Source: Alistipes sp. (lineage in GTDB: Bacteria > Bacteroidota > Bacteroidia > Bacteroidales > Rikenellaceae). From it: 64,000 bases of DNA. Of the stretch, positions 1 to 22,631 are shown piece by piece; the first letter of the stretch is position 1; every line of letters begins with the position of its first letter. The translations under genes and the position numbers were made by a program. The notes under the pieces are model-generated. The model was not told where the DNA came from and ran no database searches. It worked only from the letters and a program-made list of their open reading frames with translations. The stretch spans positions 21,453 through 85,452 of the forward strand of contig JAFOBG010000049.1 in NCBI GenBank assembly GCA_017381935.1. The letters are read 5' to 3'.

Positions 1-800
1 AAGCAAACAGCAATATCATTGCCACCGGACAAGAGAATCCGGACCTATACGGCATGGGTACTACTGTTACTGCTATTATTCTCAACCAAACTTGCGCCAC
101 AATAGCATTTATTGGAGATAGTCGTATTTATCAATTGCGTGGCAAGAAAAAGGTATTCAGAACATTCGACCACTCTATGGTGTTTGAAATGGTAGCCAAT
201 GGCCTACTCACCGAAGAGCAGGCGCGTCTCTCTGCACAGTCTAACATCATACTAAAGGCGCTTGGTGTTACAGCAGAGATAGCTCCTGAGATCTACCAAT
301 TACCTTATCTTAAAGGTGATAGATTTGTGCTCTGTTCTGATGGCTTTTGGGGTGCAATGCCTGAAAAGGAGTTGTTATCCATCATTGGCAAGAGAAGAGA
401 GAAGTTAGCAGCGATTATAGAGCACACATCAAATCTTGTCGAGACCATCGGACATAATAAAGGTGGCTCCCACGACAACCTTACAGCTGCAATTATTGAC
501 GTGGAGTGCAACTCCCTAATGAAAGTAAAAATGAGCAAGACTGTTAAAATTATATTAGCCATTTTGGCTACGCTTCTAACTCTTAGCGTTGCGCTAAATA
601 TCTATTTTGCTGTAAAATCTTGCGACCTATGCCCTACTAAGGTTGTAGAAGAGGTTACTGCCGACGGCGTAGATTTAACAGATAAGGGTACTGAGGCTCA
701 GCCTACTTCTGAAGAGACTTCTGACAATCAGAAAGAGGAAAAGGCTGACAATAAAGAGCCAAATGGTGAGGGTGAAAAAAATCCTGAAATAATTAAATAA
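1..800 (+). CDS. PP2C-family Ser/Thr phosphatase, 5'-truncated by the window edge, with a C-terminal TM helix and an acidic tail
   Basis: The frame is open from nt 3 (…ANSNIIATGQENPDLYGMGTT). PP2C motifs are present: GMGTT, IGDSRIY, LCSDGFW, GGSHDNLTAAIIDV. These are followed by a hydrophobic helix (VKIILAILATLLTLSVALNIYFAV) and a tail rich in E, K and T. Confidence 0.9.
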   Translation, partial: ANSNIIATGQENPDLYGMGTTVTAIILNQTCATIAFIGDSRIYQLRGKKKVFRTFDHSMVFEMVANGLLTEEQARLSAQSNIILKALGVTAEIAPEIYQLPYLKGDRFVLCSDGFWGAMPEKELLSIIGKRREKLAAIIEHTSNLVETIGHNKGGSHDNLTAAIIDVECNSLMKVKMSKTVKIILAILATLLTLSVALNIYFAVKSCDLCPTKVVEEVTADGVDLTDKGTEAQPTSEETSDNQKEEKADNKEPNGEGEKNPEIIK

Positions 801-807: not shown

Positions 808-1395
808 ATGAAGAAATTTCTAACAATCGGACGTGATTCGCAATGCGATATTTGCATTGTTGACAACAGCGATGTAGTGAGCCGTCAGCATGCTATTCTT
901 GAAGTTGGTGGCGGTGGTAAGTACTACATTACCGACAAGAGTCGTAACGGAACTTATGTCAACGGAATTAAAATTGCGGCAAACGAGAGAGTTCCGGTAA
1001 CACGTAAAGATATTATCTCTCTTGCCCATGTACAAGAGCTTAATTGGGACCTTGTTCCAAAGGATAACTCTCTTACATACGCTATCGTGGCAGTTGGAGC
1101 ACTTGTTGTTTTAGCACTCGTTCTCTTCTTTACTCTCCGTCCATCTAATAGCATTAACAGCGACTTTGTTGGCGGTGCAGGTGGTGGCATACCAGAGGTA
1201 GATCAAACAGAGGAACTTGTTCCGGATGTTGTTGAAGAGCCTATAGCTCAACCAGAGGAGCAACCAGCAACTGAAGCTAAGCCTGAAGAGGTAAAACCTG
1301 AAGAGGCAAAGGCCGAGGCTAAAGCAGAGCAGGCAACAGCTAAGAAGGAGAGCAAGCCGGCTAAGAGTACCAAAGTTATCGATGCAATTTACTAA
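808..1395 (+). CDS. FHA domain protein, single-pass membrane, with an E/P/A/K-rich extracytoplasmic tail
   Basis: The N-terminal FHA signature is IGRDSQCDICI…VVSRQHAIL…DKSRNGTYVNG. The TM helix is YAIVAVGALVVLALVLFFTL. The tail is low-complexity (PEEQPATEAKPEEVKPEEAKAEAKAEQATAKKESKPAKS). Confidence 0.85.
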   Translation: MKKFLTIGRDSQCDICIVDNSDVVSRQHAILEVGGGGKYYITDKSRNGTYVNGIKIAANERVPVTRKDIISLAHVQELNWDLVPKDNSLTYAIVAVGALVVLALVLFFTLRPSNSINSDFVGGAGGGIPEVDQTEELVPDVVEEPIAQPEEQPATEAKPEEVKPEEAKAEAKAEQATAKKESKPAKSTKVIDAIY

Positions 1396-1417: not shown

Positions 1418-2863
1418 ATGAGACTTATTTCAATAGGCAGTTCAAGCCAAGCGCAGATCGTATTACACAGCCAGTATGTAAGTAGTTATCACGCTGAGAT
1501 TTTCCAGCTTGATAATGGTGATATGTTACTCGTTGATAAGGGTAGCCGCAACGGTACATTCGTAAATGGCGTTCAGATTACTCCTGAGAAGGAGGTTACT
1601 GTAACTCGTAACGACGCCATCCGTTTTGCAGACCAGAATCTTAATTGGTCAATGATCCCAGCTCTCTCTATTCCTGACAAGGAGAATATTAAGGTGCTTA
1701 AGAGCATCGGTTCTCACTATCTAAACAATATTCACCTTCAGGGCAATCAGATTAGTCGTTTCCACGCTACTGTAAAGCAGACTAAGGATGGTAAGTGGTA
1801 TATCTGCGACCATAGTTCAAACGGCACAACCGTCAATGGCGTACGCATCCCTAAGGATCAGTATGTACAGATTAAGTCTAAGGATGTTATCCAGTGTGCA
1901 GGTGTTACCATCCAGAACCCTGTAACAGGTGGTGGTAGCGGTTCACTTAAGTCAATTATTCTTGGTCTTTGCGCATGCGTAGCTGTAGCTCTTGTAGCTT
2001 GGGGCATCGCAGCTTTGGCAAGCGACTCTTGGCAGACTAAGATTTATAAGACCTACTCTCAATCTACAGTCGTTCTTGAGACTGGTTACTATCTTAAGAC
2101 CGATATTGAGTACGCAGGCACTAATCGTTGGGTTATCAATGATAAGGGTGAGTTAGAGCCATACAACGGTAAGAACCCTATGAAGAGCTGGGCTACCGGT
2201 TTCTTTATTAGCGATAATGGTATGCTTGTTACAAACCTCCATGTTGTAAAACCTTGGGAGTTTGGTGATCTTAAAGATCTGAATGAGGCTATTAAGAAGG
2301 ATGTTCTTGATGTTGCACGTAAACTCAGCATCGCTGTTGCTGCAAACGACATTAAGGCTGAGGGTGCTATTGCATACATCCTTGCAGTTCCTAACGGACA
2401 AATATTCGATAGCGCAAATGCTACAAAGATGCGTGTTGTAACATATAGCGAGAAGAAGGATGTTGACCTTGCTATCCTCCAGACAATGACTGCACAGCTC
2501 CCATTCGGTGCTACATTTATTCCTGTAAGCAATATCAGCAATGAGAATCTGCCTGTAGGTACCGACATCTTCACAATGGGCTTCCCTCACCTGTCAGCTC
2601 TTCAGGATGTACAGGCATTTGAGCGTTTCCAGGAGAAACCTCTCCAGGCAACCGGAGCTTCTGGTATTATTACAATGAATAACGACAAGTATAACTACAC
2701 TTTCGACGCTGCTTCTTACCACGGCGCAAGCGGTTCTCCTATCTTTGATAAGAAGGGTAACCTTATCGGTGTTGTTGCGCACGGCATTGCATCATCTCAG
2801 GGTTATAATGGTGGTGTAAAGGCGAAGTACATTACTCGTCTTATTCAATCAACTCAGGAATAA
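1418..2863 (+). CDS. Dual-FHA / TM / trypsin-like (S1, Trypsin_2-like) serine protease fusion
   Basis: FHA1 reads IGSSSQAQIVL…VSSYHAEI…GSRNGTFVNG. FHA2 reads IGSHYLNNIHL…ISRFHATV…HSSNGTTVNG. A GGGSGS linker and one TM helix (SIILGLCACVAVALVAWGIAALA, about nt 1949-2020) follow. The protease triad contexts are TNLHVV, DVDLAILQ and GASGSPIFDKKGNLIGVV. Confidence 0.85.
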   Translation: MRLISIGSSSQAQIVLHSQYVSSYHAEIFQLDNGDMLLVDKGSRNGTFVNGVQITPEKEVTVTRNDAIRFADQNLNWSMIPALSIPDKENIKVLKSIGSHYLNNIHLQGNQISRFHATVKQTKDGKWYICDHSSNGTTVNGVRIPKDQYVQIKSKDVIQCAGVTIQNPVTGGGSGSLKSIILGLCACVAVALVAWGIAALASDSWQTKIYKTYSQSTVVLETGYYLKTDIEYAGTNRWVINDKGELEPYNGKNPMKSWATGFFISDNGMLVTNLHVVKPWEFGDLKDLNEAIKKDVLDVARKLSIAVAANDIKAEGAIAYILAVPNGQIFDSANATKMRVVTYSEKKDVDLAILQTMTAQLPFGATFIPVSNISNENLPVGTDIFTMGFPHLSALQDVQAFERFQEKPLQATGASGIITMNNDKYNYTFDAASYHGASGSPIFDKKGNLIGVVAHGIASSQGYNGGVKAKYITRLIQSTQE

Positions 2864-2881: not shown

Positions 2882-4381
2882 ATGGCTAAAAAGCATATAT
2901 TAATGTTTGCTGCGTCTCTGGCAATACTCTTTGCCGGAGAGGCAACAGCACAGAACATAGACCGTGTTGTTATGTCAAGCGGCTCTGAGTATGAGGGATA
3001 TATTGCAGAGCAGGTGCCAGGACAGTACATCACAATTAATAGTAATAAGGCTATTCTCTTTATAGACTCATCGTCTATTAAGAATATGGAGACTATCTCA
3101 TATCCTGTCAACCATTTGACAGAGCCTATGAAGAGTTGGGTAGCCAAGAATTTACCAGACAAGAGCGAAGTTGAGCTCGCCTCTATGCAGGCCGGCTCAA
3201 AAAGCTACAAAAACCTTCTTATTCTTGAAAAAGGTGTAAGAGTAAAGGTTCTACAACTTGCAAAAGATAGCTTTAAAGTAAATTGGAAAAATGTCGTAAA
3301 GACCAGCAAACTATCTACAGCAAACTCTAAACTTCATGAGGTTGTTACACTAAAGAATGGCAAGAGTTTGTCAGGTCATATCATTGAACAGATTATCGGT
3401 AAAGAGTTGCGTATCAAGCAGTTCAATGGCGATATCACCTCTATTGCATTTGCTGACATACTGAGCATCCGTACAGAACTCGCTCTTGAGGCCGAGAATC
3501 TTTGGGTACACGCTCCACTTTTGGATAAAGTAAAGCTTAATGACGGCACCGTTCTCGAAGGTTTTATCACTGCTCGTGTTATGGGTAGCCATCTCTACTT
3601 TATCACTCCGAAGAGCAACACTGAGCGTGAGATTAAGAGCGCAACCGTAGCAAAATATATGAAGGTTGTCAATCCTGACGCAATTATTGTTGAGGAGCCG
3701 GTTGTTGAGGAGCAGAAACCAGAGGTTGAGGAGGTTGATACTCGCAACTTCGAGTCAACTGAGCCTGAGATAGTTGAGGAGCAGACAATGACTCGTGCTG
3801 AGAAGAAGAAGGCTGCAAAGCAGGCAAAGGCTGAGGCTGAGGCAAGAGCAGAAGCTGAGGCTCAGATTAATGTTCAGCCTCAAGAGCAGGTTGAGCTTGA
3901 GCCTAAGGCGCAGTCGAAGAAGGAGTCTAAGAGCAATAAGGCTGAGGTTGAGGTAAAATCAGCGTTTGTGGTTCGTGTTAATGATATTCAAGTAACGCTT
4001 AGCGACTATCAGGAGATTGAGAAGGTTATCTCTAAATATTTCACATCTTCAAATAACACTATCGCTCTGACAACCCCAATTAAGGAGTGTGGCAAGGTTG
4101 GTCAGTCTATTCAGATTGAGATTCCTAACTCTTATGATATCTCAGATCTTAAGATTGTTCTTACCTCAGAGCGTAATCTGGGTATCCAGGTTACAGGTAG
4201 CGATAAGGATACTTGCCCAGCATTTACTCCAAAAGATGCCAATAAATCAGCTATCGGATATGGCACATCAACTTCAGGTAACAACAACATTATCACAGTT
4301 GTTCTTGAGACCCCTGGAGTATATGCGCTCTATCCTAAGACAAGCGATAATAAATATATCGCCTTTAAGATAACCGAATAA
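2882..4381 (+). CDS. Exported protein of unknown function with an internal E/A/K-rich coil
   Basis: The signal peptide is MAKKHILMFAASLAILFAGEATAQ. An N-terminal segment recurs three times (…YEGYIAEQVPGQYITI / LSGHIIEQIIGKELRIK / LEGFITARVMGSHLYFI). The charged low-complexity region covers about nt 3688-3957. I recognise no catalytic motif. Confidence 0.6.
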   Translation: MAKKHILMFAASLAILFAGEATAQNIDRVVMSSGSEYEGYIAEQVPGQYITINSNKAILFIDSSSIKNMETISYPVNHLTEPMKSWVAKNLPDKSEVELASMQAGSKSYKNLLILEKGVRVKVLQLAKDSFKVNWKNVVKTSKLSTANSKLHEVVTLKNGKSLSGHIIEQIIGKELRIKQFNGDITSIAFADILSIRTELALEAENLWVHAPLLDKVKLNDGTVLEGFITARVMGSHLYFITPKSNTEREIKSATVAKYMKVVNPDAIIVEEPVVEEQKPEVEEVDTRNFESTEPEIVEEQTMTRAEKKKAAKQAKAEAEARAEAEAQINVQPQEQVELEPKAQSKKESKSNKAEVEVKSAFVVRVNDIQVTLSDYQEIEKVISKYFTSSNNTIALTTPIKECGKVGQSIQIEIPNSYDISDLKIVLTSERNLGIQVTGSDKDTCPAFTPKDANKSAIGYGTSTSGNNNIITVVLETPGVYALYPKTSDNKYIAFKITE

Positions 4382-4397: not shown

Positions 4398-5504
4398 ATG
4401 AATATAATAAGAATTCAAGGCGATGCCGAAAAGCGAATGGGAGTTTACTACGAGTACGATCGTGATAGTGCTCCCATTGGCGAGGGCGGTATGGGTCGAA
4501 TCTTCCAGGGTTTCCGTGTTGACGAAATGTCTGGAGGATTCAGAATCCCTGTTGCAATCAAAGAGATTCATGAACATATCTCACGAGATCCTCAACTCAT
4601 TGAACGTGCAATGAGAGAGGCCTCTATTCAGATTGAACATGAGAATCTGCTCCGCATGTACGGCTTTGTGCCTAATGTAGAATACGATCCTCTCCATAAT
4701 ACCAATATCATGAGATATTATATGATTATGGAGCGTTTGGTAGGTGTCAACCTCGACCAGATTTTCAAGGGTATGATTTACGACCGTTCAAACATGCTCA
4801 TTCCACTTGCACAGGAGCTTTATCAGCTATATGCTTCTGATAGAGTGGAGTTTATCATACGAATAATGAAGGGCGTACTTGCCGGTATCATGGCTCTGCA
4901 CGAGCGCGGATATATCCACCGAGATATTGATCCAAGCAACATCATGATAACTATCGATAATAAAGTAAAGCTTATCGATTTTGGTGTTTGTAAACATATT
5001 GAGGCAATATCTGTTCAGGAGAAGTCGCTCACTCAGGCAGGTTCATTTATTGGTAAAGTAAATTATGCAGCACCTGAATTGGCTCTGGGCGATGTTTCAC
5101 ACCAAAATCGCACAACAGATATTTACGCACTCGGTATTCTGATGTATCAGCTCATGGTCGGTCGTCTGCCATTTGTTGGAACTAATCAGGAGGTTCTCAG
5201 TGCTCATGTATCAAAGAAGATGCCTCTTGGTGATATTGCAAACAAAGATTTACGCCGTATTATTGAGAAGGCTACACAAAAGAGACAAGAGAAGAGATAT
5301 GCATCTGCCGCTGAGCTGATTGTAGATCTTGAGCATATCAAGCGAACAAACTCTTCTGGAGGAAATATCTCTCACTCATCAAGCTCATTTACCGGAATAC
5401 AAGCAGAAAGTGAGAGTAGTACTGTTGTCTCTGTACTCATTTGGTTAGGTGTCATTATAGGAGGCCTGGCAACAGGTGTTCTATTAAAATTCCTATTAGG
5501 TTAA
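4398..5504 (+). CDS. Hanks-type Ser/Thr protein kinase, C-terminally tail-anchored, with no extracytoplasmic sensor domain
   Basis: Kinase motifs are the G-loop IGEGGMGRIF, VAIKEI (beta3 Lys), the catalytic loop HRDIDPSNIM, DFG (LIDFGVCK) and APE (YAAPELALG). A C-terminal TM helix (VVSVLIWLGVIIGGLATGVLLKFLLG) ends the protein. Confidence 0.9.
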   Translation: MNIIRIQGDAEKRMGVYYEYDRDSAPIGEGGMGRIFQGFRVDEMSGGFRIPVAIKEIHEHISRDPQLIERAMREASIQIEHENLLRMYGFVPNVEYDPLHNTNIMRYYMIMERLVGVNLDQIFKGMIYDRSNMLIPLAQELYQLYASDRVEFIIRIMKGVLAGIMALHERGYIHRDIDPSNIMITIDNKVKLIDFGVCKHIEAISVQEKSLTQAGSFIGKVNYAAPELALGDVSHQNRTTDIYALGILMYQLMVGRLPFVGTNQEVLSAHVSKKMPLGDIANKDLRRIIEKATQKRQEKRYASAAELIVDLEHIKRTNSSGGNISHSSSSFTGIQAESESSTVVSVLIWLGVIIGGLATGVLLKFLLG

Positions 5505-5507: not shown

Positions 5508-7073
5508 ATGAAATATATTAGCAAAATCTTAGTTGTGTTGTGCCTGCTTACACCTCAAATATTGTCGGCACAAACACTATCCAATAAGGATAAGAGACAT
5601 ATCAATATGCGTCTGCTTAACCTTATTGAGCAATATGAAGGAAATGCGACAATGCATGACGATGGTGCTCGTTATGCATTCAAGCAACTATTCAAAAATC
5701 CGGCTGAGACACTTGTCTATAGCGACCTGCTTGACTACTCTGCCGGAGAGCTGATAACTGCCGATAAGTATATAGAGCAGATGGGCAGTAAAGAGAATAT
5801 ATCTATAAAGATAATGGATGTGAGCAAGTCTGACTACACATTCCAAGATGGATTGTGGCATGTAACTCTCTCATTTAACAAGTCTATTATCTATACAGAT
5901 AAAAATGGAGTTCTCTTTTCATCGCCTGAGTATTACAAGGCAAACCACTCTATCTATCTACATTGCTGCTACGACAGAAATGTTGACCGTTGTTACATAA
6001 CAAAGATTGATGGAGGCATTGAGTCTTCAACACCGCATCTTCCTAAGCATTTTACAGTCATCACCAGCACTACTGAGAACTTGGATAAGATTACAGATAA
6101 AGAGAATCCATTCCAATTCAACAGTTTCGATCAGACCTTTATTGATGATAAGTTGGTTACCTCATCGCATGAGGATACAATTATCGACAAAAAGATTATC
6201 GCTGCTAGTGATTGTTATGATTGGGTAAATATTGCCTATCACACAACTCATTGGCGTGCAAAGGTTCATGCAGGTATGTCAATCGGTTCTGCTCTCAAAG
6301 TAAAGACTGAAACTCCGCTGAATATCAACAACTCATCAGCATTTGAGTTTGGCGCCGAGATTGGCTATGCTATTCCAATGGGTCGCAAATCTACTCTCGG
6401 TATATACACCGGTGTAGGTATGTCATCTACAAAGTTAGAGTTGGGTCTGAAAGATATATCATACTCTTTCAGTACAATGGATAGCAAGGGCGTTAAGTAC
6501 ACTCGCTGCTATGAATTCTCTAAGATTACAGAGGGTGTATCATACACAGATCTTGTAGTACCATTCTATGTTGGATATGAGACAAATCTAATAAAAGGTC
6601 TATATGTTGGCCTATATGGTGGAGGTAAGCTCTATGTCAATGGACAGACTAAATATGCTCCATATCACATGACAGGTCGTGTATATGGACAATATGGCAC
6701 TCAAGAGGTTACAACAGGTAACGAGGCCTTTGAAGAGATTGACAAAGATGTAAATCAATTCTTAGCTGTCAATACCTCAATGCGTAATACTACTGATATC
6801 AGTATTACAGCAGGTGCAAGTTTGGCTTATGGATTTAAGTTGAAGGGGCAGAAGAACCGAATCATAGCATTTGCAAAATGCAGTTACGAGCTGGGACTTG
6901 CTAATATCTATGAGAATACCGGTCTGCCGCTATTCCATGAGACAACAAACAGACTTCCGATGGTCTATTCAGCCTCTCTAAATCAGAACATTGCAACTCG
7001 TTCACTATTGAGTGGACTTGCTTTCAAACGACAGATTTTATGGGTTGATTTAGGTGTAACCTTTAAATTTTAA
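5508..7073 (+). CDS. Putative outer-membrane beta-barrel protein with an N-terminal soluble domain
   Basis: The signal peptide is MKYISKILVVLCLLTPQILSAQ. The C-terminal half has alternating amphipathic strands rich in G, Y and S, and the protein ends in an aromatic residue (…VDLGVTFKF), as is typical of OM barrels. The family is not recognised. Confidence 0.5.
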   Translation: MKYISKILVVLCLLTPQILSAQTLSNKDKRHINMRLLNLIEQYEGNATMHDDGARYAFKQLFKNPAETLVYSDLLDYSAGELITADKYIEQMGSKENISIKIMDVSKSDYTFQDGLWHVTLSFNKSIIYTDKNGVLFSSPEYYKANHSIYLHCCYDRNVDRCYITKIDGGIESSTPHLPKHFTVITSTTENLDKITDKENPFQFNSFDQTFIDDKLVTSSHEDTIIDKKIIAASDCYDWVNIAYHTTHWRAKVHAGMSIGSALKVKTETPLNINNSSAFEFGAEIGYAIPMGRKSTLGIYTGVGMSSTKLELGLKDISYSFSTMDSKGVKYTRCYEFSKITEGVSYTDLVVPFYVGYETNLIKGLYVGLYGGGKLYVNGQTKYAPYHMTGRVYGQYGTQEVTTGNEAFEEIDKDVNQFLAVNTSMRNTTDISITAGASLAYGFKLKGQKNRIIAFAKCSYELGLANIYENTGLPLFHETTNRLPMVYSASLNQNIATRSLLSGLAFKRQILWVDLGVTFKF

Positions 7074-7078
7074 ACACG

Positions 7079-7954
7079 ATGCAGAATAATACACTGAAGA
7101 TCATTTTGATGATCGTTACATTTATAGCATGTGCGCTGATAGGTTATGTTATCAGCCCATTCCTCTTTAACACCTCTTCTACTATTGAGGTAAATGATGA
7201 TTTCCCTGTCGGCTCTGCTGTCAGTATGGGTGGCGGTGGCATATCATCTGATATTGAGCTTGGAGGCACAAGAAATAACAACCAACAAGTCTCCAAGCCT
7301 ACTCCTGAAGAGGTAGTAGCAGAGGCTGTTGCCGTAGTGGAGGCTGCTGCTGAGGTTGCTGCTGAGGCTGCTGCTGAGGTTGCTGCTGAGCAGCCTGCAG
7401 TTGAAGTTCCAGCACCTGCGCCAACCGAGGGTATGCCTGTAATTACAAGTACTGTAGTTCATGAGCGAGACTCAAGATATATTAAACTTGGACTTGCATT
7501 TACTGCAAAGGCTACAGCTCCAGAGGGCAATACACTTAGCTATCAGCTCTTTGAAATTGGTAGTACTGAGGCTAAATACACATCTGCCAATGGCCGTTTT
7601 AAGGAGGTACTCCCTGTTGATGGCGGTAAGTATCTGCTCAAGGTTGTCAATCAGACAACAGGCGCTACTGCTGAGAAGGAGGTTTCCGGTTTCCGTAAGA
7701 TTGACCGCTACTCAGCTGCAAAATTGCAGGAGCAACTCAATGCTGATACTCAAGAGCGTCTCTTCTACTTCCACTTCGACAAAGATAAGGTGAAGTTTGA
7801 TTGTGAGGGCCTTGAAGAGTGGGAACTCCCTAAGACTTTAGGTGCAATCTTGTCAGGTCGTGCTGCAGGTGGTTGGACAATTACCGTTGTAGGTACTCCA
7901 AAGTATGACAAATACAACCGAATTACTTATTTCAAAATTAATGTAACATACTAA
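7079..7954 (+). CDS. N-terminally anchored membrane protein with an A/E/V repeat linker and a C-terminal beta-rich domain
   Basis: The TM helix is LKIILMIVTFIACALIGYVI. The linker is EEVVAEAVAVVEAAAEVAAEAAAEVAAEQPAVEVPAPAP. The stop lies 1 nt before the next start codon. Confidence 0.6.
   Translation: MQNNTLKIILMIVTFIACALIGYVISPFLFNTSSTIEVNDDFPVGSAVSMGGGGISSDIELGGTRNNNQQVSKPTPEEVVAEAVAVVEAAAEVAAEAAAEVAAEQPAVEVPAPAPTEGMPVITSTVVHERDSRYIKLGLAFTAKATAPEGNTLSYQLFEIGSTEAKYTSANGRFKEVLPVDGGKYLLKVVNQTTGATAEKEVSGFRKIDRYSAAKLQEQLNADTQERLFYFHFDKDKVKFDCEGLEEWELPKTLGAILSGRAAGGWTITVVGTPKYDKYNRITYFKINVTY
7343..7390 (+). repeat. In-frame GCTGCTGAGG(T/C)T tandem repeat encoding the (AAEV/AAEA)n linker
   Basis: The read is gctgctgaggttgctgctgaggctgctgctgaggttgctgctgag. 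Confidence 0.8.
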
Positions 7955-7955
7955 G

Positions 7956-8585
7956 ATGAAGCGACTCTTTATAATATTGTTCGGCTTGATGATTGCCCTG
8001 CCTTCGTCTATGTATGCACAGACAAGCAATCAGGAGCTATCATTCATCTATATCGCACATGATGAGAATACCGCAGTGCAGACTCTTATCAATCGTCTTA
8101 AGGAGGTATATTATGATGCGCTGAACTATCCTGAGGATAAGGCTGCAATTTTCTATCTCCCTAATGGAGAGTTTCCGGTTGTTGTACAGGTAAATACTAT
8201 CAATGACAACAAGCAGGATTTTGGTAAGCTGGTAGATCATCTGCAGACAAAGCGTTCTCACGATGTAGATCGCCATACAGATTTGGTTACAATACAACAG
8301 ATCTTCAACGAGGTGCCTATTATAACCGAAGATGGCGAGCCTTGTTTCAGATTTGTTGATTGGAACTACTATATCAACTCCACATTCTGGAATCTTGGAA
8401 ATAATGAGTATATCATCGCCTCTCTATTCTGGATTTTCGACATGCAACCTCTTATTGAGTCTATGAAGTTAAAGGTCAACCTATATTATAGTAGCGAATA
8501 CGACGTTATTCCATTTAACTCAGAGTCTCCATTTGGAGATAAGGCATTGTGTCGCTCTATGAAGTTTATACCAATGCCATACTAA
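7956..8585 (+). CDS. Exported protein of unknown function
   Basis: The signal peptide is MKRLFIILFGLMIALPSSMYAQ. The alternating beta-alpha pattern (LSFIYIAHDENT…) is loosely reminiscent of a degenerate vWA/Rossmann-like fold, but this is speculative. Confidence 0.55.
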   Translation: MKRLFIILFGLMIALPSSMYAQTSNQELSFIYIAHDENTAVQTLINRLKEVYYDALNYPEDKAAIFYLPNGEFPVVVQVNTINDNKQDFGKLVDHLQTKRSHDVDRHTDLVTIQQIFNEVPIITEDGEPCFRFVDWNYYINSTFWNLGNNEYIIASLFWIFDMQPLIESMKLKVNLYYSSEYDVIPFNSESPFGDKALCRSMKFIPMPY

Positions 8586-8609: not shown

Positions 8610-11066
8610 ATGAAAAAGATATTTTTTACTACTCTTCTCTCTCTTGCAGCTATTATAGCCGCAACTGCTCAACCAAATCTTCCGGCGAAATGTATTGCCA
8701 AACTACCTAAGGTGCTTAATAACATCATCATCTCTGAGGTAGAGGCTAATGCAGTCCTTAAATCGGGAGATTATGGTCAGTCAAACACAATTGAGGCCTA
8801 TTGGACCGCATATAGCGATCGTGAGCATAATACAACCTATATGTCGCCATCTCCAACGGCTGAGAAGTGCTCTGAGCTTGAGTGGAATGAGACTGTACGT
8901 ATTGCAAAGATTCAAGGTAACTTTGCCCTTGTATATACAGAGCCAAACAAGCACGAGCAGTTCCCACTTATCTCTGCAGATGCTGTTTGCCGAGGTTGGG
9001 TAGATATGAGAAAACTACTTCTTTGGAGATCTTGCCTTGCAAATGATGAGGGTATCTACTTTAAAGCTCTGCTCTGCGTCAACTTGGAGGCTGGTTCAAG
9101 CGCTACCCAAGACTTTGGTAGAGGTTATAAGGCTCCTAATTCAGGTGCATCAAAGGAGAGCCTTACTACCGATATGAACTTCTACTATGTAATGAAGTAT
9201 GAGAATGATATGGCACTGCTTGCAACACAGAGCCGTATGGATGGTAAACTATCTGATAAGGTACTCTTCTGCTGGGTGCCAAAGCAGTCTTATGTACCTT
9301 GGAACCAGCGTTCATGTCTTGAGCCTACATGGAAGCATGATGACGTTGAGTACTTCGCATCAAAAAAGATTTCTGCCATCGTATATGAGGATCTAAAGCA
9401 GCAGAAACGCGCTTCAACTATTGAGTACCACAAGAAAGAGTCTCCTACATACGAGCAGTATTTGTACCGTATGAAGGGTTCTGATTTGCGTTACCCTATT
9501 CTTGATAATGGAACTGCGACAGTCTATAACATGTCAACATTTAGTGTACATGGTGGTGTAGCGGTAGGTACTGAGAATGAGGCTCCCGAGACTAAGAATG
9601 CTGATGATATTCAGAAGGAGAAGTTGGAGAAGATGCTCAACATCAATCTTGTCATTGTAATCGACGGTACTGACTCAATGGCCCCTTATTACCCTGCGGT
9701 AAAGGAGGCTATCAAGTCTGGTCTGGAGTACTTCTCGCAAGGCTACAAGATTAAAGTTGGTATTGTTATCTACCGAGACTACGCTGATGGTGAGGAGGGT
9801 CTTGTTGAGATGATGCCGCTTACTAATGTAAGTAACGGTACTCTGCTTGCTCGTGTAAACAACTTCCTTGACACAGGAGGTACGTACGGTATCAAGAGTG
9901 CTAAATCCGATATGACACAGACTGAGGCTCTCTACTACGGTATGGGTTATGCCCTGGATAACATGCGTTTTGCAGAGGGTGAGAGTAACATTATGCTTGT
10001 TGTCGGAGATTGTGGAAATACCGCAGATGACACAAATTGTCCTACTCCAGAACAACTTGTAGCAAAGATTGTTGAGAAGGATATTCACATGATGGGTTTC
10101 CAGGTACAGAACAAGAACATCGTTGCCTTCAACTCATTTAACAACCAGCTCTTACCAATCATGCGTAACAGTTTGGCTAACAACTATAAGAAGCTAGATG
10201 CTAGTCTCCAAGCAAGTATCCGAGTTAGCGCACGCCCTGCAAAGAGTGAGGCTGGTATTGACGAGGGTTATAACTTTACTGCAAACGTTGACCGTCAGCT
10301 CTATATCAGCAGCCACCGCTTTGCCGATGCTAATGTAAATGAGGGTAAGATGGATCCACTGTTGCTTACAGAGCACATGACAGGATCTATCAAATCATTT
10401 GCATCTGCCGTTCAGGGACAGATTGACCTTATCACTGAGGGTGCTAAGAAGACTGCTAAGCGTATTGCTACCGGTAGTAAGTTTAAGGGAACTGTTGCGG
10501 CAAATGGTATGATGAATATTGACGATGCATTTATTGCATCTCGATTGGGTGCAGACTGGGCTGAGCAGCTTAAGAATAGTGGTAACGTGATTAACTTTAG
10601 CGGTTATGTAATGAGACAAGACGCAAGTGGTCGTGATTTCTTCAAGCCCGTAATCTTTATCTCAATGGAGGAGTATGATGAGCTTCTTAAGCGTCTTGCA
10701 CCTGTTGCTGAGGCTGCAATGAACTCTCAGACGAAGGATAGAACTCCATACATCGAGGCGATGAAGGCTCTTGTTCGCAGTTTGAGCCCTGGTATTACAG
10801 AGAATGACATGGCGAAGTTGACAAATGAGGAGATTACCAAGATGATTGGTGGTCTTCATGAGGCAGCTAAGTCTCTGAACTCTTATACTATTGAGAGTCT
10901 ATCAGACCCTATCGCAGTTCCACCTCAGAAGTACTTGAGTATTATTACCGACTTTAGCCGTAAGTACAAGAATCTGAGCCGTATCCGCCAGAGCAGAACT
11001 TACAAGTATGTAAAAGAGTTTAACAGCGCTAAGTACTATTGGATTCCTATTGAGGATCTACCTTAA
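8610..11066 (+). CDS. Exported von Willebrand factor A (vWA) domain protein
   Basis: The signal peptide is MKKIFFTTLLSLAAIIAATAQ. The MIDAS-like strand is LVIVIDGTDSM (DxTxS). A downstream Thr (TQTEALYYGMGYAL) and Asp (IMLVVGDCGN) sit at the spacing expected for vWA. Large N- and C-terminal regions are unassigned. Confidence 0.8.
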   Translation: MKKIFFTTLLSLAAIIAATAQPNLPAKCIAKLPKVLNNIIISEVEANAVLKSGDYGQSNTIEAYWTAYSDREHNTTYMSPSPTAEKCSELEWNETVRIAKIQGNFALVYTEPNKHEQFPLISADAVCRGWVDMRKLLLWRSCLANDEGIYFKALLCVNLEAGSSATQDFGRGYKAPNSGASKESLTTDMNFYYVMKYENDMALLATQSRMDGKLSDKVLFCWVPKQSYVPWNQRSCLEPTWKHDDVEYFASKKISAIVYEDLKQQKRASTIEYHKKESPTYEQYLYRMKGSDLRYPILDNGTATVYNMSTFSVHGGVAVGTENEAPETKNADDIQKEKLEKMLNINLVIVIDGTDSMAPYYPAVKEAIKSGLEYFSQGYKIKVGIVIYRDYADGEEGLVEMMPLTNVSNGTLLARVNNFLDTGGTYGIKSAKSDMTQTEALYYGMGYALDNMRFAEGESNIMLVVGDCGNTADDTNCPTPEQLVAKIVEKDIHMMGFQVQNKNIVAFNSFNNQLLPIMRNSLANNYKKLDASLQASIRVSARPAKSEAGIDEGYNFTANVDRQLYISSHRFADANVNEGKMDPLLLTEHMTGSIKSFASAVQGQIDLITEGAKKTAKRIATGSKFKGTVAANGMMNIDDAFIASRLGADWAEQLKNSGNVINFSGYVMRQDASGRDFFKPVIFISMEEYDELLKRLAPVAEAAMNSQTKDRTPYIEAMKALVRSLSPGITENDMAKLTNEEITKMIGGLHEAAKSLNSYTIESLSDPIAVPPQKYLSIITDFSRKYKNLSRIRQSRTYKYVKEFNSAKYYWIPIEDLP

Positions 11067-11077
11067 TATAATAGATA

Positions 11078-11944
11078 ATGAAGAGACTTTTTGATATATC
11101 CAATCTTCGATGCTCCTACGACAAACACTATAAGGAGGGGGTATCAAAGGTTATTCTGGAGATAGATAAGTTAGTTATACCAAAAGGTAAGAAGGTGTTT
11201 ATCGTGGGTGAGTCGGGAATTGGTAAGAGTACCATTCTCGAAACCCTCGGTATGATGAACAACACCATTGTTACCAATGACAATACACGTTTCCACTTCT
11301 ACGAAGATGATAACACAATTGTAGATTTGGCAGCACTTTGGAAGTGTAGTGATAAGGAGCTATCGGAGTTTCGCCTAAAGCACTTCAGTTTTATCTTCCA
11401 GAGCACAAACCTTATGCGTAACTTTACAGCCTATGAGAATATAGCTTTGACACGTATGCTTCAACGCTACAGTCAGAGTTCATCATTTGAGAAGGCTAAT
11501 CAGGTTATGAAGGACCTCGGACTTGAGCATATAGACCAAACTCGTATGACTCAAGAGCTCTCAGGAGGTCAGCAACAGCGTTTGGCTTTTGCCCGTGCTA
11601 TTTTGCCTGACTTTACAGTTCTTTTTGGTGATGAGCCAACCGGAAACCTTGATAGCGACAATGCTGTTAAGGCAATGGAACTCCTCTCAAACAAGCTCTC
11701 ACAACTTGAGGGTAGTTCGGCAATCATCGTTTCGCACGATATGCATCTTGCAGTAACATTTGCCGACGTGATTATCAAGATTCGCAAAGAGGTGCGTAAA
11801 TCTAACTCTGTAAAGGATGAAGTAATCTATTACGGAGCGATTGATGATAGTTGCATCTTTACGCCTAATCAAAATGGAGAGTGGAGCAACGGCAGTGAGA
11901 GCTACTTGCCAGCAGATTTTGAGTTGTACTTAAAGAGATGGTAG
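11078..11944 (+). CDS. ABC transporter ATP-binding protein, MacB/LolD/FtsE-like
   Basis: Motifs present are Walker A GESGIGKST, Q-loop FIFQS, signature LSGGQQQR, Walker B VLFGDEPTGNLD and H-loop IIVSHD. The stop overlaps the next start (ATGGTAG). Confidence 0.9.
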   Translation: MKRLFDISNLRCSYDKHYKEGVSKVILEIDKLVIPKGKKVFIVGESGIGKSTILETLGMMNNTIVTNDNTRFHFYEDDNTIVDLAALWKCSDKELSEFRLKHFSFIFQSTNLMRNFTAYENIALTRMLQRYSQSSSFEKANQVMKDLGLEHIDQTRMTQELSGGQQQRLAFARAILPDFTVLFGDEPTGNLDSDNAVKAMELLSNKLSQLEGSSAIIVSHDMHLAVTFADVIIKIRKEVRKSNSVKDEVIYYGAIDDSCIFTPNQNGEWSNGSESYLPADFELYLKRW

Positions 11945-13524
11945 CAATGAGACTTAAAGATATTATATCAACCGACTATTTTAAACTCTTTGTCAAGCGC
12001 GAAGGAAAAGTAGTGCTTGGAAAGAACTACTCAAGCCTTTGGTTGCTATGTAGCGTCCTTACAACAACATTCTTGGCCATAGCATTCAGTAATGCAAGTC
12101 TTAACTACCTATCATACAAGATGAACGACCCGTTTATCAATTGGGTAGATATTAAGAATAACTTCGGAGAGAATGACTTTATAGGTTTTGAGCAGGCCCT
12201 ACGCGAAGAGCAGAACAAAGAGCGTTTCCACTTTAACGGTTACCAAACCGATAAATATTGGTACTCACTTTTTGGTACTGCGAATAACAATAGCCGTAAC
12301 CTTAAGTGTCGCTATTTCGCTGATATTCAGACACCTTTAGTACAGGCCATTATGGATAAAGACAATGTCGTATCAAAGGCTTGTATTGCAGCTGAGAATA
12401 TCAACAACCAATCATACGGTGTCATCATTACTCAAGATGCTCTTTGTAGTAAGTTGGGTTATGATATTGACAATATCCCGTCATATATCAACTACTTCAC
12501 ATATTGCAATCCTGATGCAAGTGAGTATGGTGTAGATATCTTAGGAGACGGCTTTGCCCTTGCCCCAATCCCTGTATTGGCTGTTGTAAAGCGTCTGCCA
12601 ACCAACATGGATATTATTAGTACCAAGTTCCTCTATCTTCAGAATCTGGGGTGGGCTCTTAATATGGACCGCATAGAGTACCACACATCTTTTATCTACT
12701 TCCTGCCTAACAAGGTAGATGTAGAGAAGTTTAAGACTGAGCTAGAAGGATTGACTGCAGAGAAGTGCACAACTTCATTCTTTACACTCTATGGACAGGA
12801 CCTACCAATGACTCGTATGATCCCATTCCGAGAGGGTACATTTATTCTCCTTCAGTTTGACTATCCTGATGAGGTCGATTTTGTAGCTACAAAAGAGATT
12901 AATCAGACTATCCTTGACAAATACAAGGAGGATGGTGTATATCGTATCTATGACTATGTTGAGAGCTTTACTACTGACGACCAGGACGACTATATCTCAG
13001 TACATTTTGGCAATCTGGATATGATTAGTAGTTTCCAAGAGTTTGCAAAAGAGAACTTCAAGATTGATATTGAGATGTCTCAAATCAATGCAAAGGAGAA
13101 CTTTAATGAGGTAAGCATTATGGCAAACATACTCTCATGGACTATGATTGTCTTTGCCATTGTATGTATTATTCTATTTATTATCAACTTGTTGCAGTCC
13201 TACTTCCAGAAGGTAAAGCGCAATTTGGGTACATTCAAGGCATTCGGAATCAGCAATATGGAGTTGATAAGTGTCTATGTACTGATTATGGTGGCAACTA
13301 TTTTGGTAGCTATCACTATCTCTCTTGGCGCATCCTATCTTATTGAGATTATACTGCCTCTTTTAGGCATTGTAAAGGATGCTTCATTTGGATACCTCTC
13401 TCTATGGAATGGAAAGACCTTAGTCTCTGTTCTTATCATCATAGCAGCCTCTGTTGCTACTGTATATATGGTAATGAGCAAACTTCTAAAGGCAACCCCT
13501 GGAGACCTAATTTATGACAGATAG
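11938..13524 (+). CDS. FtsX/MacB-type ABC permease with a large periplasmic domain
   Basis: One N-terminal TM helix (LWLLCSVLTTTFLAIAF) is followed by an extracytoplasmic region of about 330 aa. The C-terminal three-TM FtsX-like module contains …LGTFKAFGISNMELISVYVLIMVATILVAITISLG…. The 7-nt overlap with the ATPase gene indicates translational coupling. Confidence 0.8.
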   Translation: MVAMRLKDIISTDYFKLFVKREGKVVLGKNYSSLWLLCSVLTTTFLAIAFSNASLNYLSYKMNDPFINWVDIKNNFGENDFIGFEQALREEQNKERFHFNGYQTDKYWYSLFGTANNNSRNLKCRYFADIQTPLVQAIMDKDNVVSKACIAAENINNQSYGVIITQDALCSKLGYDIDNIPSYINYFTYCNPDASEYGVDILGDGFALAPIPVLAVVKRLPTNMDIISTKFLYLQNLGWALNMDRIEYHTSFIYFLPNKVDVEKFKTELEGLTAEKCTTSFFTLYGQDLPMTRMIPFREGTFILLQFDYPDEVDFVATKEINQTILDKYKEDGVYRIYDYVESFTTDDQDDYISVHFGNLDMISSFQEFAKENFKIDIEMSQINAKENFNEVSIMANILSWTMIVFAIVCIILFIINLLQSYFQKVKRNLGTFKAFGISNMELISVYVLIMVATILVAITISLGASYLIEIILPLLGIVKDASFGYLSLWNGKTLVSVLIIIAASVATVYMVMSKLLKATPGDLIYDR

Positions 13525-13542: not shown

Positions 13543-16500
13543 ATGAAAAAATTTCTATTAGCATTTTGCACCATTGCCCTTCTTGCCTCTTGCGACCAGG
13601 TGGCCCCAGAACAGAGTGTTCACCCAGGAACAGAGGGTATGGCTGTATCTATCAGAGAGGCAACAATCCCTCCAATGGGAAACCTAGGAGATAAGAGTGA
13701 GTATATACAATTCACTGTATCTTCAGAGGTTGCATGGAAGATAGAGAGAAATGGTGCTGATTGGCTTTTGTTTGATTTTAACGGCAAACCAAGTTCTACT
13801 CTCAAGGGCGCTGCCGGAACTACAAATGTAGCAATGTATGCCCCTGTAAATACAGAGTCTGAATCATACCGTACAGCAAAGGTTGATTTTATTTTTAGTG
13901 ATGCAAGTAAGAGCGTAGCCACTATAGATGTATATCAGGAGCGTCCTTATTTGAGAATTAAGGCTGCTGATCAGACCCTTGAAGAGCCTGAAAGCATACA
14001 CAACTTCCTCTTCCATTGGGACGAGAGCGAGGATCAAGTTACAGATGCTGAGCAGAGTATTACCATCTATTCTAATACTCCATGGAAGATTTCTCTTGGA
14101 GAGAATGCTCGTACATACCTCTGTCAAGAGGGTCTTGAGCCATTTGATGGCAAAGCAACTGTTAATGCAATTGGTCAGAACGGTATTCTTATCGGTCCAA
14201 CTGATAATCAATGGCTTGTTTGTTCTCAGATAGAGGGTGATACAACAGGTGATTTAAGAGCCGGCGATAATGGCGTGAATGTAAAGTTCAACCCACTACG
14301 ATACAATACAACTCGCAATGATCGTACACTTAACATTGTTGTTTCCGGTCAGAACAAATTGTGGCAAACAATGTACCTAAATTTCGTTCAGGAGAATTTG
14401 ATATTTGTTGCCACTTTGGATGGAGCAGATGTTGCAGACAAAGATGCACAGGATAATATTCCTACTGTTATCAAATATCCTGCATGTAACACCACAACCA
14501 TTGCTCAGCATCAATTTACAGTTGAGTCTGAGCTTGATTGGGTTCTTAATGACAATAGTTCGACATGGGTTGTAACAACTCCTAAGGAGGGATACGGCTC
14601 AGGTGTTGATGGTCAAGGCCTTGTAACTCCTGGTACTATCAACCTTATTGAAAATGATGCTAATCCGGGTTCAGAGGTGCGTGAGGAGATTCTCACCTTT
14701 ATAAGTCAGGCCGATGTTAACCCTAAACCAAGCCTATATATCAAGGTGGAGCAAGAGGGTTATATCTTTGAACTTAATCCATCGACTCTAAATATTAGCA
14801 ATAACGATTTGACTGAAAGAGAGATACAATTTATGTCATCAGGTCATTGGGAGGTAGATAAGGCCTCTGTTCCTGAGTGGATTACTGTATCAGGCGGAGA
14901 GGGTATTGGTCTTGAATATGGTGCACAGGGTGTAGAGCGTTTTAATATTAACGCAAACTGCCAGAACCTACTACTTACCGATCGCTCTCAGAATATCGTC
15001 GTGAAAAGTACTCAGCCAGGTAACAACATGGCTAAGAGTATCTCCGTAACTCAAGATAAGTATATTTTCGATGCTACATCGTTAGACTCCGACCTTCAGT
15101 TCGGAACTGACGAGAGTGTTAATGCACCTGCCACCCTCGATATTCACAGTTCAGGTGATTGGGAGATTAGTATCAAGTATCCAGATAGCTACAACCAAAA
15201 CTTGGATTGGTTGGAATGCGAGAAATATTCCGGAAACGGTAATGCTAAAATTACATATTGGGCAAAGAGCGTAAACGGAGATATCGACAATGACCGTATG
15301 GCGACTATCGTCGTTACAAGTAGCACCCACAAAAACGCAGGCGTTCCTATTGACGATATAGAAATCAATATCAAACAACGTAAGTTCACATTCAACATTA
15401 CAGCAAACTCCCCAATCTCATATTATGCAGTAGATAGCAGTTCAAACAATGTCGCAATTGACTGTTCTGTTGCATGGCAGGTTGATGCTTCAGAGAGTTG
15501 GGTAAAACTAAATAGAGTTTCTGGAACAAGTAACACCAAGTCTCTATCTGTAACTGTTGAGAACAACCTCTCACTCTCTCCTCGTCAGGCTACCGTTACT
15601 ATTAGCAATATAGATCCGGCCTATGGTGAGCATACAAAGAGCTTTACCATTGAGCAGAAGGGATTTGTATTCAATGTTAGCGGCACTACTGAATACAACA
15701 ACCTAAGCCCTATAAACGCTACAGGCAACTACGAGGTGCAAGTTACCTGCTCAGGAGCATGGAGTGTCAAGCCTGCTGAGGCATGGGTTACAGCCTCTCC
15801 AAGTAGCGGTAATGGAGGCAATCCGGAGGCTGCAAAGAGTGTACACTTTACTGTAGCAGACAACCCAAATCTCTCTACTCGTTCAACAAGCGTTACAATT
15901 AGCAGTAATCTCGACTCTCAATATTCTAAGAGTGTAACATTCTCTCAGAATGCATTTGAGTTTAACAACACTCCAAAGAGTTTCTCTTTTGATGCTATCA
16001 ACTCAAAGAGCGAAAAGATTGATATCGTATGTAGCGGTAATTGGGTACTTGATGGTTATGAGAGTTGGATGGGAGCTGACAAGACAAGCGGCTCTGGTAA
16101 CACTACAATCACTATCACTCCTACAACCAATACCAATAAGGGTACAGGTCGTATGAATAGAGTGCTTAAGGTTGTAAGTTCTCTCCACAAAAACATCGGT
16201 TGGTCTGATATGGCCTCTGTAACAAAGGTTATCAATATTAGCCAAAACGGTTTGCAGTTTGATGATACTCCTGTAACTGTTCCTCCATTCAAGGCCATCT
16301 CTCCAAGCAGCTATACTGCATCAATTGGTCTATGTGATGGTGGTTGGGAGATAAAGTCTGTACCTAGTTGGGTTACAGTAACTCCTACTTCAGGCACAAG
16401 CTACCAGAGTATCATGATTACTCCAAGCGAGAATACTAGTATGCAGATGCGTGAAGCAACTATTGAGGTAGTAAGTAAATTAAACTCTTCTCTTAAGAAG

Positions 16501-16863: not shown

Positions 16864-16898
16864 AAGCATTAACAATAAACCTCAAACAATAAAAAGTT

Positions 16899-17930: not shown

Positions 17931-17957
17931 TATTAACACATTAAAAAACTTATAGCT

Positions 17958-18428
17958 ATGAAAAAACTGATTATTTTGGCACTTGTTGCAGTTCTCATGT
18001 CATCTTGTACTATGCACAAATCTACAGTGAGAAACACAACTGTTAAGCACCCAACTATCGAGTCAACAACAATGGCGACACTTAATATCAGCAAGAAACG
18101 TATCAACTACACATACGTTCCTGAGCGTACAGACTCTCGTCGTCTTCCTGAGGCTCGTCTTATCCAGAATGCAATCTTCAAGGCTCTTGCAGCAAATGGT
18201 AATGCAGATGTTTTGGTACAGGTTAACACATATACTACAGTCCACAAGGGCTTGTGTGGTCGTCGTATCAAGAGTATCTCTGTAAGTGGTTATCCTGCAT
18301 ACTACACTAACTTCCGTGAGCCTTCAAAGAGCGATTTGGAGAATGTATATATCTTCAACCAATCTGGCCATGCTACAGATTGCTGTGAGGGTGATGGTTC
18401 TGTTATTAATCGCATCTTCAAGCGCTAA
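17958..18428 (+). CDS. Small lipoprotein of unknown function, last gene of the operon
   Basis: The lipobox is LMSSC. The gene is followed by a strong hairpin terminator. Confidence 0.6.
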   Translation: MKKLIILALVAVLMSSCTMHKSTVRNTTVKHPTIESTTMATLNISKKRINYTYVPERTDSRRLPEARLIQNAIFKALAANGNADVLVQVNTYTTVHKGLCGRRIKSISVSGYPAYYTNFREPSKSDLENVYIFNQSGHATDCCEGDGSVINRIFKR

Positions 18429-21741: not shown

Positions 21742-21757
21742 AGCTTAGTTTATTGTT

Positions 21758-22543: not shown

Positions 22544-22631
22544 ATATTTTATTTCAAGGCTTTTACTGAGGAAGGGACATACTACTGTATTTCCCTTTCT
22601 CAGCAAAAGGCAGTAACGCCGAAAACGCCCT

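Follow-up and report, generated by a model that had tools for sequence, protein, structure and literature searches.

A protein with tandem FHA domains, one transmembrane helix and a predicted periplasmic HtrA-fold protease belongs to a kinase/PP2C/FHA module of Bacteroidales

We analysed a stretch of 64,000 nucleotides (nt) from Alistipes sp. (contig JAFOBG010000049.1 of assembly GCA_017381935.1, positions 21,453 to 85,452 of the forward strand), referred to below as the window, in which the gene at positions 1418 to 2863 encodes a protein of 481 amino acids (aa) with two FHA domains, one transmembrane (TM) helix and a serine protease domain. The open reading frame (ORF; + strand) starts with ATG, 22 nt past the stop of the preceding gene. 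The original prediction, made from the DNA letters, had read it as FHA1-FHA2-GGGSGS-TM (nt 1949-2020)-protease; every motif quoted there was found at its place, and the layout agrees with both the Pfam matches and an AlphaFold2 (AF2) model. The parts of the gene, with the evidence for each, are the following.

1418..2863, + strand: whole gene, FHA1-FHA2-linker-TM-S1 protease, 481 aa (Pfam and AF2)
1418..1657, + strand: FHA1, residues 1-80 (Pfam FHA, conservation, alignment register)
1685..1921, + strand: FHA2, residues 90-168 (Pfam FHA, conservation, alignment register)
1931..1948, + strand: GGGSGS flexible linker, residues 172-177 (AF2 predicted local distance difference test score, pLDDT, <50)
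1949..2020, + strand: single TM helix, residues 178-201 (Kyte-Doolittle 2.62; AF2 helix 177-201)
2021..2860, + strand: predicted periplasmic chymotrypsin-fold serine protease domain (HtrA/DegS-like, PDZ-less), residues 202-481 (Trypsin_2, Foldseek and PDB profile matches)
2240..2242, + strand: predicted catalytic His275 codon (invariant in 120/120 homologs; aligned with the SplC His)
2465..2467, + strand: predicted catalytic Asp350 codon (invariant in 120/120)
2729..2731, + strand: predicted catalytic Ser438 codon, in GASGSP (invariant in 120/120; aligned with the Ser of SplC GNSGSP)

The Pfam FHA model (PF00498) matched the protein over two stretches with 118.3 bits (E=2e-34; cutoff, 20.7), and Trypsin_2 (PF13365) matched residues 259-452 with 61.6 bits (E=1.9e-16; cutoff, 27.6). 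Both matches are far beyond chance, and the FHA-like regions, whose failure at the threshold of the hidden Markov model had been named as a possible refutation, passed it. The Yop-YscD_cpl model also exceeded its threshold on this protein (53.5 versus 33.2 bits). By residue, the motifs are IGSSSQ (6-11) and VSSYHA (21-26) in FHA1, IGSHYL (97-102) and ISRFHA (112-117) in FHA2, and TNLHVV (272-277), DVDLAILQ (348-355) and GASGSPIF (436-443) in the protease domain. The AF2 model, which was built on the 120-sequence family alignment and had a mean pLDDT of 91.9, consists of two beta-sandwich domains, a disordered linker, a long helix (residues 177-201) and a beta-rich C-terminal domain, residues 172-178 being the sole segment with a pLDDT of <50. 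Counts out of 120, here and below, refer to the best 120 clusters of the 978 homologs retrieved in a word-index search (E<=1e-5); these clusters showed 99-100% query coverage and 38-86% identity, and all of them carried both PF00498 and PF13365. One was labelled "FHA domain-containing protein [Alistipes sp.]".

The fold of the C-terminal domain was compared with the PDB by Foldseek, which returned the protease domains of plant Deg1, Escherichia coli DegS, human HtrA1, DegP, AlgW, and DegQ. The top matches (Deg1, DegS, and HtrA1) had an E value of ~1e-11, a probability of 1.00 and a template-modelling score, TM(target), of 0.70-0.78, normalised to the protease-only PDB targets; the superposition on DegS/HtrA that had been proposed as a check thus came out as a match to the cores of these three proteases. 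A family profile searched against PDB sequences scored the staphylococcal Spl proteases and exfoliative toxins about equal to HtrA1 and DegP, and it also matched RsgI9 (7sjy), called an anti-sigma-I factor by its depositors. In a pairwise alignment with SplC, TNLHV fell on TNKHV, with H275 opposite the SplC His, and GASGSP fell on GNSGSP; on the strength of the latter correspondence, the predicted nucleophile is S438, the first Ser of G-A-S-G-S-P (the counterpart of GDSGGP). The chymotrypsin/HtrA-like order of His, Asp, and Ser that had been read from the sequence was borne out, since Trypsin_2 passes its cutoff and H275, D350, and S438, together with the G-x-S-G motif, were invariant in all 120 full-length homologs. 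In the wider clade the triad was kept in 249 of 261 proteins, and 11 of the 12 exceptions were fragments of 108-289 aa missing those positions; such conservation argues for selection on catalysis. The sole full-length clade member without the triad, P0248 (475 aa), has Arg, Asp, and Thr at the H, D, and S positions and may be a pseudo-protease or an alignment artefact.

The protease domain was modelled at a pLDDT of >90, and the protein stops at residue 481, directly behind it, with no PDZ match in Pfam. Membership in the HtrA/DegP/DegS family (S1C) was ruled out by this lack of a PDZ domain together with the scores of the curated HtrA-type models, which were far below their cutoffs (degP_htrA_DO, 26.4 versus 416; DegS, 18.3 versus 423; HtrA, 18.4 versus 470). 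The MarP family was rejected as well, with 35.3 bits versus 250 for NF033740 (E 6.5e-9) and one TM helix rather than several.

Which side of the membrane the protease faces was judged from the single TM helix and from the relatives of the domain. The helix is the sole hydrophobic segment, and an N-terminal signal peptide is lacking, in 120/120 homologs; in the Alistipes protein, 177 residues of folded FHA domains precede it. A search with the protease domain (residues 203-481) against 1.84 billion representatives gave 218 clusters at E<=1e-10, of which 141 representatives were newly retrieved. Among these 141, the order 2xFHA-TM-protease was found in 84 and 1xFHA-TM-protease in 18, with the canonical Gly-Arg in most of the latter; another 14 had a different N-terminal region plus one TM helix, or an N-terminal signal anchor, ahead of the protease, and 25 had no TM helix before it, these being mostly fragments, several of which start with a signal peptide or a lipobox. 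Pfam assigned the architectures GYF_2(x2)-TM-Trypsin_2, TIR_2-TM-Trypsin_2, FHA-TM-Trypsin_2, and 2xFHA-TM-CarboxypepD_reg(x2)-Trypsin_2 to such relatives. In P0178, P0170, P0139, and P0227 one TM helix connects the protease clade to TIR_2 (P0178), to a pair of GYF_2 domains or to one canonical FHA domain, and one of the four has two FHA domains and then, on the periplasmic side, two CarboxypepD_reg domains. The architectures of the relatives argue that the protease is extracytoplasmic and that the N-terminal module serves as a cytoplasmic input or adaptor that can be exchanged, and they suggest a modular class of the form cytoplasmic adaptor-TM-periplasmic protease. Because of the single TM helix without a signal peptide, the FHA residues ahead of it and these relatives, we infer an N-in/C-out topology as the only reasonable reading, in agreement with the cytoplasmic FHA domains and periplasmic protease first proposed. 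We therefore predict with high confidence, from sequence and model, that this is a bitopic protein of the inner membrane whose tandem FHA module lies in the cytoplasm and whose S1 protease, of the HtrA fold but without a PDZ domain, lies in the periplasm and is catalytically competent.

We then examined the ligand pockets of the two FHA domains, in both of which the original prediction had noted Gly-Ser where the beta3-beta4 loop canonically has Gly-Arg. In FHA1, Gly7-Ser8 stands at this place, S22-S23-Y24-H25 (the VSSYHA segment, residues 21-26, present as described) takes the place of SRxH, and N45-G46-T47 is kept; in FHA2, the loop has Gly98-Ser99. Neither domain thus has the canonical Gly-Arg. 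A MAFFT alignment of the operon's four FHA domains put both Gly-Ser pairs in register with the Gly-Arg of the single-FHA proteins, which keep that pair, as had been stated (IGRDSQ in the protein of 808-1395 and IGRNPQ in that of 16899-17930). The change is family-wide in FHA2, where position 99 was Ser in 68 homologs, Thr in 51 and Asn in 1, never Arg, next to an invariant G98; in FHA1 it is variable (position 8: Ser 70, Arg 35, Thr 7, Asn 5, Lys 3). The residue following the conserved Ser of FHA1 also varied, being Arg in 12 homologs, and 73/120, the Alistipes protein included, had no Arg at either phosphate-contacting position of FHA1. Other parts of the pockets turned out to be nearly fixed: Ser-x-x-His (beta4-beta5) and Asn-Gly-Thr (beta6-beta7) were present in both domains and were invariant or found in 119/120, and in FHA2 the whole of S113-R114-F115-H116-A117 and N135-G136-T137 was invariant. 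The loop Arg of FHA domains touches the phosphate (the reference residues in Rad53 FHA1 are R70, S85, N86, T106, and N107), so its substitution is functionally meaningful. Since SRFHA and NGT are invariant, the fold of FHA2 appears not to have decayed but to keep a conserved ligand site; with its fixed Ser/Thr and all other pocket residues frozen, it looks like a remodelled ligand site. The FHA half of the protein matched Dun1, Rad53 FHA1, and GarA in the PDB profile search.

The gene lies in a run of genes that extends from before position 1 of the window to position 18428, all on the same strand and with intergenic gaps of <=35 nt. This tight spacing and the terminator-like hairpin that follows point to one operon, the other features of which are listed below.

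1..800, + strand: PP2C phosphatase with a C-terminal TM helix (166-184) and an acidic tail, 5' end cut by the window edge (Stp1/IreP model positions 90-231)
808..1395, + strand: canonical FHA protein (IGR...SRQH...NGT) with a TM helix and a Pro/Glu/Ala/Lys-rich periplasmic tail (Pfam, TM scan)
2882..4381, + strand: secreted 499-aa protein of unknown fold (signal peptide; no Pfam family)
4398..5504, + strand: Hanks-type Ser/Thr kinase, tail-anchored (Pkinase, 117.7 bits; TM 343-361 of 368)
5508..8585, + strand: three envelope proteins, outer-membrane protein (OMP)-barrel-like 521 aa, TM-anchored 291 aa, and secreted 209 aa (co-conserved in loci of the window's type)
8610..11066, + strand: TssR-like vWA protein with a signal peptide (Pfam TssR models)
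11078..13524, + strand: LolD/MacB/FtsE-type ABC (ATP-binding cassette) ATPase and FtsX-type permease
13543..18428, + strand: operon tail, BACON x4 lipoprotein of 1106 aa, canonical FHA protein with 4 TM helices of 343 aa, and small lipoprotein of 156 aa
18447..18480, no strand assigned: terminator-like hairpin with a perfect 15-bp stem, closing the operon

Five proteins of the operon are membrane-tethered cytoplasmic signalling proteins (PP2C-TM, FHA-TM, the FHA-protease protein, kinase-TM, and FHA-4TM), and seven others have a signal peptide, a lipobox or an N-terminal membrane anchor. The kinase lacks any extracytoplasmic domain, and a Ser/Thr-rich segment just before its TM helix (approximately residues 313-342) is a candidate autophosphorylation and FHA-docking region. 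The TssR-like protein passed the threshold of 25.7 bits for TssR_VWA (PF20782; 42.4) and TssR_C (PF20781; 29.3) and fell just under it for the N-terminal barrel (PF17643; 22.8). In the AF2 model of the 499-aa protein (pLDDT, 65.6), small beta-barrels in tandem precede a disordered Glu/Ala/Lys linker and a C-terminus rich in beta structure; the search for its homologs yielded only 6 sequences, and Foldseek gave no match at E<=0.001, with vague Tudor- or Ig-like resemblance only, so it was dropped as a pointer to a substrate or partner of the protease. Long low-complexity Glu/Ala/Lys/Pro spacers, on the predicted periplasmic side, occur in the tails of the PP2C and FHA-TM proteins and in the proteins of 499 and 291 aa (window positions 640-800, 1150-1395, 3690-3960, and 7290-7420) and are reminiscent of TonB/TolA-type periplasm-spanning linkers. 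The BACON x4 lipoprotein (13543-16863) had no counterpart within the 10-kb flanks of other loci, and the TssR-like and LolD/FtsX-type ABC block (8610-13524) may be a stand-alone envelope-sensing apparatus.

The hairpin at 18447-18480 has T-runs on both strands, as in a bidirectional terminator, and lies between the operon end and a convergent aldose epimerase gene; a tandem pair of S1/P1 nuclease paralogs, of 258 and 282 aa (window 20965-22606, - strand), stands just downstream of this aldose 1-epimerase gene. Elsewhere in the window lie ordinary chromosomal genes (DPP-IV, M23 peptidase, RecQ, FabF, and sulfatase), and no type VI secretion system (T6SS) core genes, mobile elements or defence elements were found among the scanned window proteins. 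Pfam gave no matches to TssN, TssO, TssP, TssQ, or sheath/tube proteins among the operon neighbours, three of which matched no family at all and may be remote homologs. A sigma-70 promoter scan was uninformative (57 sites versus 46.9 expected), organisms with other promoter types being outside its scope.

How far the arrangement extends beyond this genome was determined in species-representative genomes, a scan of which gave 58 loci, and by tblastn of 14 operon proteins against 62 fetched loci. All 58 loci belonged to Bacteroidales except for a handful of evidently mis-binned metagenome-assembled genomes (MAGs), which answers the architecture search proposed at the outset. The host groups were Alistipes and other Rikenellaceae, Bacteroides, Phocaeicola, Parabacteroides and other Tannerellaceae, Odoribacter, Barnesiella, Muribaculaceae, Prevotella, and Paraprevotella. 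Four loci (L014, L026, L037, and L043) came from MAGs whose labels are Treponemataceae, Lachnospiraceae, Eggerthellaceae, and Methanomethylophilaceae (an archaeon); they carry the Bacteroidales operon at 36-41% identity with synteny conserved, and are most likely contaminated bins.

The PP2C and FHA-TM genes were each directly upstream of the protease gene in 61/62 loci, a kinase was nearby in 61/62, and the Ser/Thr kinase-PP2C-FHA(TM)-protease core as a whole was present in at least 60/62. The kinase, the PP2C phosphatase and the FHA protein are thus encoded together, as they are in the T6SS threonine-phosphorylation pathway. A homolog of the 499-aa secreted protein was found in 47/62 loci. 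What follows the core differed. A TssR-like gene occurred at 23/62 loci, as a rule accompanied by genes for the OMP-like protein, both small envelope proteins and the ABC/FtsX pair; the window itself has this arrangement, here called type A, and its continuation (TssR-like vWA plus LolD/FtsX-type ABC) occurred in about 40% of loci. In type B, WG_beta_rep proteins, a small OMP barrel and additional kinases stand in place of the TssR/ABC block, the order being FHA-STK-STK-PP2C-FHA-protease (STK, Ser/Thr kinase) followed by WG_beta_rep and the rest (L001/L002, 1464-4334 and 4820-19421; L016, 5813-20515). In L001/L002 an S41 peptidase and a 747-aa ClpB-like ATPase are also present, and the operon begins directly after ftsA-ftsZ; L016 contained no core T6SS genes. 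On gene content and synteny, we hold with high confidence that the protein is a core component of a Bacteroidales-specific Hanks-kinase/PP2C/FHA module.

The explanation that we prefer, and to which we would give about an even chance, is that of an envelope protease docked by phospho-signalling within this kinase/PP2C/FHA module. Through the tandem FHA module, the protease would be docked to phosphorylated proteins on the cytoplasmic side of the membrane, the autophosphorylated tail-anchored kinase or other operon proteins being the likely partners. HtrA-fold proteases act as trimers, and the kinase/phosphatase balance would determine how the protease clusters or oligomerises and thereby its cleavage of envelope substrates; in the window, the module would be wired to the TssR-like vWA protein, the OMP-like protein and the LolD/FtsX-type ABC pair. 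Phospho-dependent docking is favoured because of the near-universal kinase and phosphatase linkage and the frozen FHA2 pocket. That docking depends on phosphorylation, that oligomerisation acts as a switch, what the protease cleaves and in which direction the signal runs are all matters that we infer. A more specific chain, in which cytoplasmic Thr phosphorylation directly gates the periplasmic protease, FHA docking to the phosphorylated kinase complex drives oligomerisation, the TssR-like/OMP/ABC apparatus is cleaved and the FHA pocket has been rebuilt around Ser/Thr, seems to us doubtful; if true, it would give Hanks-kinase signalling a proteolytic output that runs from inside to outside and is conserved across gut Bacteroidales.

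Three observations weigh against the preferred explanation. The loop Arg is absent from both FHA domains of the Alistipes protein and FHA1 also lacks the SRxH Arg, so the domains may have lost classical phosphothreonine (pThr) binding or may bind more weakly. A periplasmic sensor is lacking in the kinase, so the periplasmic parts may be an input rather than an output, with signalling from outside to inside. And the charged residues flanking the TM helix, to which the positive-inside rule would apply, were uninformative in the 120 homologs (mean K+R, 1.55 on the N side versus 2.16 on the C side).

The alternative that survives best takes up the second of these points. The periplasmic protease domain would sense or process an envelope cue (exposed peptides or damaged outer-membrane proteins), oligomerise, cluster the FHA domains and so scaffold or activate the kinase, much as in DegS, or in TagQRST upstream of PpkA. 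With a tail-anchored kinase that has no extracytoplasmic domain, sensing must be supplied by partner proteins, and the operon is rich in periplasmic and outer-membrane proteins and has a TagT/TagS-type ABC pair; DegS is among the closest structural matches, and the match of the family profile to RsgI9 is of the same tenor. Nevertheless, Pfam recognised no PDZ or other sensor domain on the periplasmic side, and the strictly invariant triad suggests selection for cleavage, not for binding alone. We regard signalling in this direction as unlikely, about half as likely as control of the protease by phospho-docking.

Alternatively, the divergent FHA domains could be plain interaction modules that do not depend on phosphorylation, as reported for YscD/EscD and EssC, and could hold a housekeeping maturation or quality-control protease in a trans-envelope TssR-like/OMP/ABC assembly. 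The absence of the loop Arg from both FHA domains and of Arg from both phosphate-contacting positions of FHA1 in most homologs would fit this, as would the Yop-YscD_cpl match and the presence of a TssR-like protein in the T6SSiii membrane complex (PMC10781749). On the other hand, Ser-x-x-His and Asn-Gly-Thr are invariant in both FHA domains, and Ser-Arg is invariant in FHA2. We know of no degenerate scaffold FHA domains that display such motif invariance. Moreover, the kinase and PP2C are linked to the gene also in loci without the TssR/ABC block, FHA1 keeps its Arg in 35 homologs, and Gly-Arg is retained in most single-FHA relatives. We consider such a scaffold improbable, a little more so than signalling from the envelope inward.

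Two further readings are poorly supported. That the protease is the toxic or abortive output of a kinase-gated anti-phage or inter-bacterial system is very improbable: the TIR_2-TM-protease relative P0178 and weak PADLOC matches (RT-Protease_XI for the protease domain, PD-T4-6 for the kinase) point that way, but the latter concern generic kinase and protease domains only, the operon keeps its synteny across Bacteroidales families and lies among housekeeping genes, with neither mobile elements nor a defence island nearby, it adjoins ftsA-ftsZ in L001 and L002, and the protease faces the periplasm. That the C-terminal domain is a catalytically dead binding module, as P0248 might suggest, has next to no chance given the invariance of the triad and G-x-S-G in the family and the wide retention of the triad in the clade.

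In Bacteroidales, the dominant Gram-negative order of the gut, signalling by Hanks-type kinases has hardly been explored, and the family offers a concrete, conserved and genetically tractable entry point, with orthologs in cultured Bacteroides and Phocaeicola species. If phosphorylation does control the periplasmic protease, this would be a new coupling of cytoplasmic Ser/Thr signalling to envelope proteolysis, complementing the outside-in pathways of the DegS/RseP type. The fixed Arg-to-Ser/Thr change in FHA2, with all other pocket residues invariant, constitutes a natural experiment on FHA ligand recognition.

The architecture itself is already represented in databases; the family is conserved and uncharacterised. 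The original prediction knew of no characterised FHA-TM-protease fusion, and in the literature we likewise found no characterisation of any family member; the architecture, however, had been listed in 2008, as "FHA-FHA-Tryp" for Bacteroides thetaiotaomicron NP_811686.1 (Tripathi & Sowdhamini 2008, PMC2605481). That protein has the same architecture, comes from the same bacterial order and is presumably an ortholog; the literature search under its locus tag carries little weight, as our conversion to a BT_277x tag was a guess. The 2008 survey is a catalogue entry only, with no TM helix, topology, operon context, FHA pocket changes or function. A paper on vWA-ternary conflict systems (Kaur et al. 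2020, PMC7159879) was set aside, as it does not describe this operon.

Several known systems share parts of this design. With the actinobacterial tandem-FHA ABC transporter Rv1747 and the FhaA/FhaB(FipA)-PstP-PknA/PknB system, the module has in common tandem or TM-anchored FHA domains together with Hanks kinases and a TM-anchored PP2C. The actinobacterial systems rely on pThr-dependent docking at the membrane. The output here, by contrast, is a predicted periplasmic protease rather than an ABC transporter or a cell-wall synthase, and the loop Arg is lost in both FHA domains; the best NCBIfam FHA match, FhaB_Rv0019c, reached 62 bits versus a cutoff of 125, and the protein is thus not FhaB. In gene content, the operon in its type A form resembles the Pseudomonas aeruginosa H1-T6SS PpkA-PppA-Fha1-TagQRST pathway, with a Hanks kinase, PP2C, FHA, vWA, a LolD/FtsX-type ABC pair and envelope proteins, but the vWA domain is on the separate secreted TssR-like protein and not on the kinase, and the PpkA pathway has no protease. 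A link to T6SS, or assignment as a TagH-type FHA protein, was rejected, as no T6SS core families were found in the scanned window proteins and TagH scored 55 bits versus 120; in Bacteroidota, TssR itself is a lipoprotein with a vWA domain and belongs to the T6SSiii membrane complex (PMC10781749). YscD/CdsD and GltG are similar in having cytoplasmic FHA domains, one TM helix and a periplasmic domain (the Yop-YscD_cpl and GltG models matched in part), yet their periplasmic parts are ring-building or TonB-like and not enzymes. The likeness to MarP (Rv3671c) of Mycobacterium tuberculosis lies in a membrane-anchored S1 protease with an extracytoplasmic catalytic domain and envelope targets, along with the weak model match. 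MarP has four TM helices and no FHA domains, and differs from the Alistipes protein, which has a single TM helix and scored 35 versus 250 with its model. The protease itself is closest to DegS, HtrA1, and Deg1, with which it shares the chymotrypsin-fold core, and to DegS also in the one N-terminal TM helix at the inner membrane and a protease in the periplasm; it differs from DegS/HtrA in having no PDZ domain, in a regulatory module that is cytoplasmic (two FHA domains) and not periplasmic, and in an identity of only 12-16%. The protein can best be seen as combining an FHA-TM adaptor with a regulated, membrane-anchored S1 protease of the periplasm.

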